A DNA stretch of 64,000 bases from positions 1 through 64,000 of IMG/VR virus record IMGVR_UViG_3300025936_000002; one strand, 5' to 3'. A model generated the notes under the pieces. It made no database searches. It saw only the letters and a list, made by a program, of their open reading frames with translations, and was not told the DNA's origin. A program made the position numbers and the translations under genes. Shown here in pieces: positions 30,032-55,729 of the stretch. Source of the DNA: a virus. Lineage: Duplodnaviria; Caudoviricetes. How positions within the stretch are numbered: the first letter of the stretch is position 1; the number at the start of each line of letters is the position of its first letter.

Positions 30032-30478
30032 CTAGGCCCCGATCGAGCCCAGGATCTCGACGTCCAGGTAAACCTGGACCCCGCCAGAAGCGATAACGTT
30101 CGAGATCAGGAGCGAAGGGGTAGTAGGATCAACGGTCCCTTGGATGGCATCGACCGTGAAGGACGAAGCATGACGCCGCTCGAGGCGGCAGATCGCCGTG
30201 GGCTTGTTGGGGTTGCCGACCAAGGTTGCGTTGTCTTCGCTCTGTAGGAGCGCGCGGGCCTCAGCCTGGGACGAGATGCCTCCCACCGAGATCAAACCGT
30301 AGCCTTGCGTCTTGACGCGAGCGATTTGCTTGAGCGGACCCGCGAGCGAGTCGGTCAAGAGATCGGGGGATGGGCCGCCTACGCACTGGATCTCGACCGA
30401 TTCGGACCCGACAGTCGAGTTGATCAGGTAGCGGAGCCGATTGTGGCCCGCGAATACAAGGGTTGCTGTGATGGCCAT
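30032..30478 (-). CDS. Putative virion protein, paralog A
   Basis: MAITATLV..GHNRLRYL, QGYG, AEARAL and YLDVE are shared with the two upstream ORFs. Confidence 0.7.
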   Translation of the reverse strand: MAITATLVFAGHNRLRYLINSTVGSESVEIQCVGGPSPDLLTDSLAGPLKQIARVKTQGYGLISVGGISSQAEARALLQSEDNATLVGNPNKPTAICRLERRHASSFTVDAIQGTVDPTTPSLLISNVIASGGVQVYLDVEILGSIGA

Positions 30479-30480
30479 GG

Positions 30481-30924
30481 CTACGCTCCAACTGCTCCGC
30501 CCTCGAGCTCGACGTCGAGGTATGCGACACCTGCGGCGGCGGGGGCCGTGATGGCGATAGTGGGATGACCCGAGCCATCGACATTGGCATCGACGATCCA
30601 GATCGGCGCCGTAGTTCCCGTGCGAGGCGTGAACTCGCAACGACCAGTCATCAGGAGCTGACCCGGGTTGGCCCCAGATCGATCGCTGAGCCACAGCGCG
30701 CGCGCCTGCGCCTGGGTCAAGGCGCCCGCAGGAAATGCGCCGTAGCCATCCGTGAACGTCTTGGTTAGCTGGCGGATCTTGCCGGGCGCCGAGTACGTAA
30801 GGAGGTCGTTGGTCGGCTGACCTGTCGTGGTCAGCGTGATCGTACTGCCCGCGTTCCCATCCTGCGTCAGGATCCAACGTTGGCGGTTGGGGCGAAATTC
30901 ACACACTACTGCTGTAACGGCCAT
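30481..30924 (-). CDS. Putative virion protein, paralog B
   Basis: DGYG..AGALTQAQARALWLSDR and VDANVDGSGHPTI are shared with paralog C. Confidence 0.7.
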   Translation of the reverse strand: MAVTAVVCEFRPNRQRWILTQDGNAGSTITLTTTGQPTNDLLTYSAPGKIRQLTKTFTDGYGAFPAGALTQAQARALWLSDRSGANPGQLLMTGRCEFTPRTGTTAPIWIVDANVDGSGHPTIAITAPAAAGVAYLDVELEGGAVGA

Positions 30925-30926
30925 GG

Positions 30927-31415
30927 CTAGTCTCCGATCGTATCGCCGACGTAGATGTCGAGCTCGCAAGTCGCCGAGGTATCGCCGTCGGAGACGGCGA
31001 CCGAAGCGACGTTGATCGTTGGGTGCCCCGGGCCGTCAACGTTGGCATCGACGAACCAGGCATCACTAATCCCCGTGCGGGGCGTGAGCCGGCAGAGCGC
31101 CGTAGGAACGATATCGAGTCCCGCCAACGCAGCATCCTCGGTAGACGGGTTCTGCGAGCCGATCCGGTCGGAGAGCCATAGCGCGCGGGATTTGGCCTGC
31201 GTCAGGGCCCCGGGCGCGTACTTCCCGTAACCCTGCGTAAAGGCCTTGGCGAGGAGCATCACCGGCCCTTGATTGGTGCCGAGGTCAGTCAGGATATCTG
31301 GCGTTGCCGCACCAGTCGTCGTGATGACACCCGTGTCGGCCCCCGTCGATAGGGTCGACAGGAGATACCGCAGACGATTATGCCCGGAGTGGACGAGCGT
31401 TGCCGTGATGGCCAT
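30927..31415 (-). CDS. Putative virion protein, paralog C
   Basis: MAITATLVHSGHNRLRYL, QGYG..PGALTQAKSRALWLSDR and VDANVDGPGHPTI. Confidence 0.7.
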   Translation of the reverse strand: MAITATLVHSGHNRLRYLLSTLSTGADTGVITTTGAATPDILTDLGTNQGPVMLLAKAFTQGYGKYAPGALTQAKSRALWLSDRIGSQNPSTEDAALAGLDIVPTALCRLTPRTGISDAWFVDANVDGPGHPTINVASVAVSDGDTSATCELDIYVGDTIGD

Positions 31416-31645
31416 GACGATGACCATACACGGCGATTCTACAATGATCAAACTAACTTGAGCGGAGTTCTCGGCCTGATCAGATCGCAGCGCACAATGT
31501 CCCGAAAACTTGGGGTCGGCCATCTTGTTCATCTGATCAGACGTGAACCCCAAGATCGCCTCGGAGTCGATCTGCCAGTTGCCTGGATCCAAGGTGGCGC
31601 CCTCACGGCGGTTGTAGCCGTACCATCCTACATGGCAAGCTCTCT

Positions 31646-31933
31646 TCATTGATGCCGACGATGCCCACCATCGGTAGCATTGCAGAGACTACAGAGTATC
31701 CGTAACTTGATCCCAGCTTTGTACTCACGCCAGTAGCGCGCAACCCGAGCGCTCGACGATAGTTTTCTCAAATTCCAGCTGCGACCGTTGACGTGATCGA
31801 TCTCTAGTTCGGTGGTATCCTCGACGAGCCGCAGACACTCAAGATTTTGACACCGCAGATCTGGCGCCAGAAAGTAGCACCAAGTCGGTGCGGCGCTTGG
31901 CAGCATAGTAGGCGTTCTCTCTAGTCCGCGCAT
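31646..31933 (-). CDS. HNH-type endonuclease-like protein
   Basis: CQNLEC, LEIDHVNG and LCSLCN. Confidence 0.6.
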   Translation of the reverse strand: MRGLERTPTMLPSAAPTWCYFLAPDLRCQNLECLRLVEDTTELEIDHVNGRSWNLRKLSSSARVARYWREYKAGIKLRILCSLCNATDGGHRRHQ

Positions 31934-43320: not shown

Positions 43321-44028
43321 CTAGGTCACGTTGCGCTTGATCAGGCCGTAGAGATAGCTCTTGATGTCGGCAAACGTCAAGTTATCGCCGCCATCCGAGG
43401 CGGGCTGGACGATGACCGGCGGCGCCTCGGGGTTGAACTCGAGCCGATACGCGATGTTCTCGCGCATCCAGATCGGCAGAACGAGCGCGTTGCGATCGCG
43501 GGGCGACGGAACGCCGTTCTGCGCGAGCTCGAAGTTGGCGTTGGTGCTGAACACGTTGAAGCCATGCCCCTGCGGGTAGTCCTGGATCACACCGGACGTG
43601 TACACCTTGTCGTTGTACTTGAACTCCAGGTAGGTCACGCGATCGACGTTGAACAGCGTCCGCAGCGTGGCCGGATCCGACAGTGCACCGTTGGTGTCCG
43701 GGAACTGCGGCTGCGTCGCGTTCTCGGCCGGGCGCTCGACGCGGACCATCTTGATCCCGATGCCGTAGATGAACATCTCCCACGACATCGGCAGACCGGT
43801 ATCACCGGCGCGAGCGAGGTTGCTATCCACGCGGGTGCTAGTACGTGTGCCGCCGTTGATCGGCTGCGCGCGACCGTTCACGAACGCCTGCAGACCGAAG
43901 GTCTGCCCGTTGGTGAACTGCACGGTGCTATACAGCTTGTCATCGATCCAGTCTTCGATCTGGATCGTCTGCCCGCTGGGCAGGGTGAACGTGGTGGTTC
44001 CTGGTGCTACTCCGACAGTGCCGGCCAT
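43321..44028 (-). CDS. Candidate large single-jelly-roll major capsid protein
   Basis: 235 aa, beta-rich, extreme GC3 bias, AAGGAG RBS and own terminator. Motifs T..DSN...G.LP..WE..IYGI, NGVP and YLYG...R.V are recalled from jelly-roll capsid proteins. Confidence 0.62.
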   Translation of the reverse strand: MAGTVGVAPGTTTFTLPSGQTIQIEDWIDDKLYSTVQFTNGQTFGLQAFVNGRAQPINGGTRTSTRVDSNLARAGDTGLPMSWEMFIYGIGIKMVRVERPAENATQPQFPDTNGALSDPATLRTLFNVDRVTYLEFKYNDKVYTSGVIQDYPQGHGFNVFSTNANFELAQNGVPSPRDRNALVLPIWMRENIAYRLEFNPEAPPVIVQPASDGGDNLTFADIKSYLYGLIKRNVT

Positions 44029-55486: not shown

Positions 55487-55729
55487 ATGACCGTCGGTGT
55501 TGCGCCTGGAACCACGACCATCCACCTTGGCTTGGGCGAACCCAACAAGCAGTTGGTGCTGCACAACCCATGGGTGTCTGGTGACGTCGCCTTGGGGGCG
55601 ATTCAGACCAAGGCCAAGATCCGATGGGACATCATCGGGGTCATCGGCGGAGGATCCCTGATCATAGCCCTTGCAGCCGGCCTTATCGCCAGCGCATTCG
55701 AGGCGGGCTCTGACAGACGGACGACGTAA
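55487..55729 (+). CDS. Tail-anchored protein sharing its N-terminal decapeptide with the large capsid protein
   Basis: TVGVAPGTTT is identical; HLGLG motif; C-terminal TM. Confidence 0.7.
   Translation: MTVGVAPGTTTIHLGLGEPNKQLVLHNPWVSGDVALGAIQTKAKIRWDIIGVIGGGSLIIALAAGLIASAFEAGSDRRTT

Follow-up and report, generated by a model that had tools for sequence, protein, structure and literature searches.

An 80-amino acid membrane protein and a 235-amino acid capsid protein candidate encoded by one virus genome open with the same ten residues, and the question raised by this locus is why a small membrane protein should begin like the protein of the shell. The window (the whole stretch of DNA analyzed, 64,000 nucleotides) covers the opening 64 kb of an IMG/VR virus record that is complete at 85,269 bp and has direct terminal repeats of 127 bp. 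The 80-amino acid protein is termed the anchor, and the features referred to below are as follows.

55487 to 55729 (stop codon included), + strand: anchor gene, encoding an 80-amino acid tail-anchored membrane protein (ORF, homologues and syntenic partners)
55490 to 55519, + strand: anchor decapeptide TVGVAPGTTT, residues 2 to 11, with the core 9-mer starting at 55493 (ORF translation and BLASTP)
55520 to 55573, + strand: anchor residues 12 to 29, a putative strand-turn-strand with a P-W end (sequence comparison only)
55631 to 55699, + strand: predicted single C-terminal transmembrane helix of the anchor, residues 49 to 71 (hydropathy maximum of 2.38)
43321 to 44028, - strand: 235-amino acid protein with a single jelly roll, candidate for the major capsid protein (AF2, VIA-align and Foldseek)
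43990 to 44019, - strand: decapeptide TVGVAPGTTT of the capsid protein, residues 4 to 13 (ORF translation)

The Shared Decapeptide

The anchor begins M-TVGVAPGTTT-IHL and the 235-amino acid protein MAG-TVGVAPGTTT-FTL. An earlier, sequence-only reading of this DNA had described the decapeptide at the start of both ORFs, which is borne out by identity at 10/10 positions with both ORFs located where it had placed them, and had put the genes 11 kb apart, in agreement with the 11.4 kb that separates 44028 from 55487 on opposite strands. A BLASTP alignment of the two proteins contains 12/17 identities with an E value of 7e-5, which refers to a single comparison. The codons quoted in that reading are correct, and its view that selection acts on the peptide fits the synonymous differences present at seven of the ten decapeptide codons (six of nine in the core plus that of the preceding Thr). 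The strict motif occurs exactly twice in a six-frame scan of the entire 85,269-bp genome, in these two genes. Composition-preserving shuffles of the 146 ORFs of the genome (n = 200) give a longest shared word of seven residues in 139 cases, eight in 11 and nine in 2, and none yields a 10-residue word shared between ORFs.

Peptides of the xGxxPG type favor a turn. The hexapeptide VGVAPG (window positions 55493 to 55510 and 43999 to 44016) is presumably also the repeated elastin hexapeptide of vertebrates, a likeness that is almost certainly coincidental. Elsewhere in the window, the adjacent ORFs at 30032 to 30877 and 30927 to 31649 (- strand) have two exact 8-residue words in common and are probably tandem paralogues.

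Fold of the 235-Amino Acid Protein

The AF2 model of the 235-amino acid protein calculated with a 56-sequence alignment is a single jelly roll with a pLDDT of 85.5 and a pTM of 0.80, and it supersedes an earlier model from 22 close homologues with a pLDDT of only 58. Residues 1 to 10 are of low confidence (mean pLDDT of 54), and residues 13 to 15 and 21 to 23 pair as a hairpin. The model has the eight strands and a length within the range of about 150 to 250 residues that define the single jelly-roll capsid protein class. A VIA-align search of 48,161 chains places three capsid proteins at the top, those of SPV1 (Z of 7.9), HHIV-2 (Z of 7.4) and HCIV-1 (Z of 6.7), values that are middling by the tool's own note (Z < 8). 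The superposition with SPV1 VP4 (PDB code 6oj0) has an rmsd of 3.5 Å over 141 residues with 9% sequence identity, and the same structure is the best Foldseek match (probability of 0.99). The nearest named clusters in the ESM Atlas, PM2 P2 and PRD1 P3, score 0.76 to 0.77 and are a lead at most. The protein matches no Pfam or PHROG family at E ≤ 0.1 and has no detectable homology to a described capsid family. The jelly-roll fold and the nearest structures support the assignment as a capsid candidate made by the sequence-only reading; with matches of Z < 8, the description as a capsid protein, used below, is a strong inference from the model and not proof.

More than 429 homologues of 234 to 238 residues with 68 to 86% identity occur on contigs of up to about 180 kb, and wider relatives form 88 cluster representatives with identity down to about 25%. 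The motif is nearly invariant among the 120 capsid protein homologues listed. In the distant homologues P0178, P0198, P0209 and P0222 it is preceded by a Cys-rich, zinc-ribbon-like extension of 40 to 90 residues, and thus the motif need not form the extreme N terminus.

Architecture of the Anchor

Hydropathy analysis of the anchor defines one transmembrane helix at residues 49 to 71 followed by a 9-residue tail with no N-terminal signal, consistent with its earlier description as a small membrane protein. No family in Pfam or PHROGs contains it. A database search returned 26 homologues of 73 to 137 amino acids, with the motif present in 26/26, behind a leader of 1 to 14 residues, and exact in 24/26; this search seeds on shared 5-residue words and may favor motif-bearing proteins, and a search by synteny was therefore added. 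In this family Val-3, Gly-4, Ala-6, Pro-7, Gly-8, Thr-9 and Thr-10 are invariant at a mean column identity of 29%, as are Arg-46, Trp-47 and Asp-48, which form R-W-D just before the transmembrane helix, and Gly-54 and Gly-55. Outside the motif the identity between homologues drops to about 35% with a several-fold change in length.

The layout consists of a short leader (1 to 15 residues), the motif, a strand of the pattern hydrophobic-x-hydrophobic, a linker that varies and is often rich in Pro, the C-terminal transmembrane helix and a short, usually basic tail. The C-terminal placement of the helix without a signal peptide is found in 18/18 complete partners and in the long forms of genomes G021 and G023. 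The middle part has about 30 residues in the shortest forms and over 200 in the longest, and the conserved parts are only the motif, a short element before the transmembrane helix and the helix itself. Residues 12 to 29 of the window's anchor appear to resemble the first β-hairpin of the capsid protein, ending in P-W compared with D-W. Longer homologues have a Pro-rich linker in place of these residues, so only the motif and the next three residues are universal in anchors.

The element before the transmembrane helix is composed of P-[YW], 4 to 8 residues and [LM]-x-G-L-G, with the window copy at 55568 to 55606. The strict form [LMIV]xG[LTM][GR] is present within 30 residues before the helix in 17/44 anchors; the window's anchor has a weaker P-W...A-L-G-A, and its nearest relatives likewise lack the strict form. 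The mean charge is +1.6 for the C-terminal tail compared with +0.9 for the N-terminal flank of the helix, and individual tails reach +5.

Two variants of the anchor are distinctive. In genome G003 (IMGVR_UViG_3300043395_003089) a near-identical second copy (L020:1501-1725) lies about 0.9 kb from the first with its 5' end replaced, such that the motif begins VAPGTTT with no nearby in-frame ATG, forming a natural arm-damaged duplicate. In a large-genome clade (L012, L075, L113 and L028; 91 to 221 kb) the anchors have 165 to 190 amino acids and contain an internal second arm-like segment, G-L-P-G-T-A/T-x-I-x-L, which is a separate profile match; a helical stretch rich in Gln then leads up to the transmembrane helix.

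Paired Genes in Related Viruses

Capsid protein alignments, together with a DNA pattern for the conserved segment DWIDDK, located about 90 loci in IMG/VR, in metagenomes from JGI and in GTDB genomes. A second motif-bearing gene is found wherever enough sequence is available, usually 8 to 11 kb upstream of the capsid gene and on the other strand. There are 27 distinct pairs, with identical 9-mers in 17, and the partners agree at 232/243 residues. In the 20 pairs compared for codon use within a genome, 123/172 identical residues (72%) are encoded by different codons, which indicates that the likeness is upheld by selection at the level of the peptide and not by gene conversion. A DNA-level cause for the shared motif, either a regulatory element or gene conversion, is rejected by this codon divergence.

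Single-sequence IMG/VR searches with the window's capsid protein and with the variant-motif proteins P0150, P0151 and P0153 gave no usable locus. At nine loci the upstream flank is available over its full 10 kb and contains no anchor, and no tail-anchored ORF in these flanks resembles the capsid N terminus; this absence is uninformative, since the anchor gene is 10.9 to 11.4 kb away in the window and in G010.

The sequence-only reading had proposed checking whether the two N termini co-vary across relatives, a check that the pairs pass, since the peptide is common to all 27 and its rare changes mostly affect both genes. Substitutions in the motif were placed by parsimony, which leaves some placements ambiguous, on a tree of the capsid protein calculated without the motif. 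The capsid protein accounts for five of them and the anchor for 11, and 4/5 of the capsid-side substitutions are matched in the anchor at the same position on the same branch. At position 6 in the large-genome clade the capsid Gly is changed to Ser, with Ser or Ala in the anchor, and at position 7 in G012 Thr is replaced by Ser in both proteins. Position 8 has two changes in one clade, with Ser accompanied by Ile (L005 and L007) and Tyr by Tyr (L008 and G012). The counter-example is G021 with GTST in the capsid protein and GTTT in the anchor, and several changes at positions 3, 4, 6 and 7 are confined to the anchor. A simulation in which anchor changes are placed according to branch length gives a probability of 3e-5 for at least four matches in five, a figure drawn from few events, three of which share a clade. 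An independent-pairs test on the tree provides one informative pair per position, with the same direction throughout, and has no power below six pairs.

The motif is carried by more than two proteins in the larger genomes G022 and G023 (124 to 127 kb), where it heads three or four, so the presence of two per genome is not universal. Its bearers are the capsid protein, a second jelly-roll paralogue and a long anchor, with one further protein without a transmembrane helix in G022. The motif behaves as a module common to several lattice proteins. The second paralogue has about 250 amino acids with its own versions of the motif, VGIAPGTTT and VGVAPGVST (L138 in G022 and L141 in G023), and the match of several representatives of this class is limited to about the first 90 residues of the query. 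The G022 ORF without a transmembrane helix (L140:1156-1992, - strand) opens with VGTAPGTTT followed by a strand and is a possible third motif-bearing class.

A Deep Sister Lineage

A capsid homologue with about 39 to 46% identity, which starts NTGTLTV and is without VGVAP, is encoded by seven IMG/VR genomes (L118 to L124; 89 to 121 kb). A search of these genomes with the anchor profile found no homologue, its sole match being rejected as internal and non-membrane. A tail-anchored protein of 64 to 71 amino acids, encoded 4 to 8 kb upstream of the capsid gene, starts NTRTLTL or a variant and is also without VGVAP. This small anchor ranks first in likeness to the N terminus of its own capsid protein in 5/6 genomes, each with 11 to 27 tail-anchored candidates; the five agreeing genomes are close kin and amount to one or two independent observations. 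All four protein sets contain [G/R]-T-x-T and, after it, a strand of alternating hydrophobic residues; this element matches the first β-strand of the capsid model. The rule that the anchor begins like the capsid protein thereby appears to extend, on those one or two observations, to a lineage with a different sequence. In the most divergent genome a different, 114-amino acid tail-anchored ORF (L123:14665 onward, + strand) ranks best and the usual small anchor eighth. This ORF resembles the second strand of the capsid hairpin, with P-Y-G-I-K-F-A compared with P-F-A-I-Q-F-A.

Genomic Context

The anchor gene lies within a block of unannotated, mostly tail-anchored proteins. A comparison of 40 proteins of the genome with Pfam and PHROGs identified replication, recombination and modification genes, and HK97 capsid, terminase, portal and tail families were absent from these 40. 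Further products of the genome include a transglutaminase-like protein with a papain fold and at least two proteins resembling glycosyltransferases. With many tail-anchored proteins encoded nearby, we infer that the virion has an inner membrane. Contigs with the capsid gene have been binned in metagenome-assembled genomes of Actinomycetes (L091, 28 kb) and Polyangiales (L092, 10 kb), short contigs whose assignments conflict.

Proposed Role of the Anchor

The predicted anatomy of the anchor is that of a tether, with a conserved arm, a linker of variable length and a membrane anchor. The 80-amino acid protein would be a tail-anchored protein of the virus inner membrane with a free N terminus that copies the capsid arm, comprising the VGVAPGTTT turn and the first β-strand. 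The copied arm would dock at the lattice site that normally receives the arm of a capsid subunit, or would pair with those arms, and with the C-terminal helix remaining in the membrane the shell would be fastened to the membrane or its assembly started there. Docking of the arm is proposed because of the tether anatomy and the precedents of HCIV-1/HHIV-2 and SPV1, and a tether or nucleator with a capsid-like arm docked into the lattice is given a probability of about one-half. The sequence-only reading had suggested mimicry of the capsid N-terminal arm that tethers the shell to the membrane; that suggestion has gained the peptide pairs, the co-change, the tether-like architecture and the jelly-roll fold, and its inner membrane, its shell-facing arm and the docking of both arms at a common site are presumed.

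The co-change comes from few events with a counter-example in G021, and it would be equally expected if a third factor were to read both peptides. The shared peptide would then be a recognition or assembly-targeting tag for a glycosyltransferase, maturation protease or chaperone, with the capsid-arm site not occupied by the anchor, an explanation that is unlikely although a co-evolving reader would account for the changes in both genes just as well. The motif is rich in Thr in a genome that encodes glycosyltransferase-like and papain-fold proteins, tolerates the leaders in anchors and the zinc-ribbon-like leaders in some capsid homologues, and is present on three or four different proteins in the larger genomes, all of which would suit a tag. 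However, conservation of the anchor only at the motif, the element before the transmembrane helix and the helix would leave a tagged protein devoid of any other function, the residues before the motif vary too much to define a cleavage site, and the difference between Ser and Ile in the position 8 partners of one clade is odd for a single reading pocket.

The evidence for a tether is shared by a rather improbable variant in which the anchor is a regulator, its arm competing for the capsid-arm site and holding subunits at the membrane or delaying closure until it is later displaced or cut. The sequence data cannot distinguish such transient binding from permanent binding. A precedent is provided by adenovirus, where N-terminal peptides of the virion proteins pVI and pVII are accommodated in one pocket (bioRxiv 10.1101/857581). 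The [LMIV]xG[LTM][GR] sequence of some anchors fits the pattern of an adenain-type site, but the window's anchor and its nearest relatives are among those without its strict form. A more far-reaching version of the tether, held with equally little confidence, would make the arm a general, evolvable address code carried by every protein that joins the lattice and received by one common socket, with arm and socket co-evolving by lineage and the anchor arm later being cut off at the GLG-type site as a bacterial-virus counterpart of adenovirus pVI maturation.

The orientation of the anchor in the membrane bears on a further alternative, in which its N-terminal part is lumenal on the genome side, or outside the host membrane, and unrelated to the shell, the peptide being a product of common descent of a stable β-hairpin module. 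The C-terminal tails are often strongly basic and on average more so than the N-terminal flank, which by the positive-inside rule would favor a lumenal N terminus in some homologues and would break the tether model, and the likeness of the window's anchor to the capsid hairpin over about 28 residues is consistent with a partial gene duplication. Tail-anchored proteins with the transmembrane helix at the extreme C terminus, however, normally have a cytoplasmic N-terminal part. Common descent alone fails to explain nine near-invariant residues beside about 35% identity elsewhere and leaves the same-position co-change without an explanation, which makes this alternative very improbable. A coincidental match between low-complexity sequences, or an ORF called in error, as might be suspected from a peptide rich in Gly, Val, Ala, Pro and Thr and from longer antisense ORFs that overlap the 80-amino acid ORF, can be dismissed given the absence of shared 10-mers in 200 shuffles, the conservation of the ORF family with an invariant transmembrane region and the recurrence of the gene pair in 27 genomes.

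Significance

The co-evolving peptide pair suggests that, in a widespread group of large tailless viruses that has not been described, a protein shell could be fastened to an inner membrane by simple means. Shell-to-inner-membrane linker proteins are already known; registration of the shell onto the inner membrane has been described for a handful of cultured viruses, with the linkers each found by cryo-EM. Here a linker candidate, together with the peptide through which it probably makes contact, is picked out directly from DNA, in a group that has no cultured member and hundreds of relatives known from the environment. A literature search returned no paper containing the 9-mer, and none of the papers searched describes a linker whose arm is copied from the capsid protein and co-evolves with it. 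If the copied-arm proposal is true, it would add evidence that these tailless viruses of 77 to 221 kb build membrane-containing particles, and it would provide a rule for uncultured jelly-roll viruses, in which lattice-binding proteins could be sought among tail-anchored proteins whose start resembles that of the capsid protein. The natural matched peptide variants (T/T, Y/Y, S/I and SY/SY) are available for tests of specificity.

Comparison with Known Systems

PRD1 P16 is a small membrane protein that links vertex to membrane and locks the shell to the inner membrane as proposed for the anchor; it differs in having an N-terminal transmembrane helix and is not known to share a peptide with P3, the capsid protein.

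In adenovirus the N-terminal peptides of pVI and pVII compete for one hexon pocket, and one of the two proteins is membrane-active (bioRxiv 10.1101/857581). The likeness lies in two different proteins having a similar N-terminal peptide, which in the present virus is identical at all ten positions and remains nearly so across the 27 pairs. The adenovirus bearers are two minor or core proteins whose peptides are freed by a known protease, whereas here they are the capsid protein itself and a membrane anchor. A release site of the (M/L/I)XGX-G type may have a counterpart in the 17/44 anchors with the strict sequence, a group that does not include the window's anchor.

SPV1 (Portogloboviridae) has an inner lipid layer, with subcapsomer proteins that span shell and membrane (PMC8459092). 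Its VP4 is the best structural match of the 235-amino acid protein; the virus differs in its 20-kb circular genome, its archaeal host and the lack of a described membrane protein that shares the capsid arm.

HCIV-1 and HHIV-2 are internal-membrane archaeal viruses with vertical single β-barrels, and their capsid proteins are structural neighbors of the 235-amino acid protein without sequence similarity to it; their genomes are about 30 kb compared with 85 kb here. The N-terminal residues of their capsid proteins dock under the base of the neighboring jelly roll, and the small proteins VP13 and VP10, each with a C-terminal transmembrane helix, are placed under pentons and capsomers and position them (PMC6414509). 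VP13 and VP10 have not been reported to have a peptide in common with the capsid protein, unlike the anchor. In its other traits, a small size, a single C-terminal transmembrane helix and the absence of a signal peptide, the anchor resembles a linker of the VP13/VP10 type.
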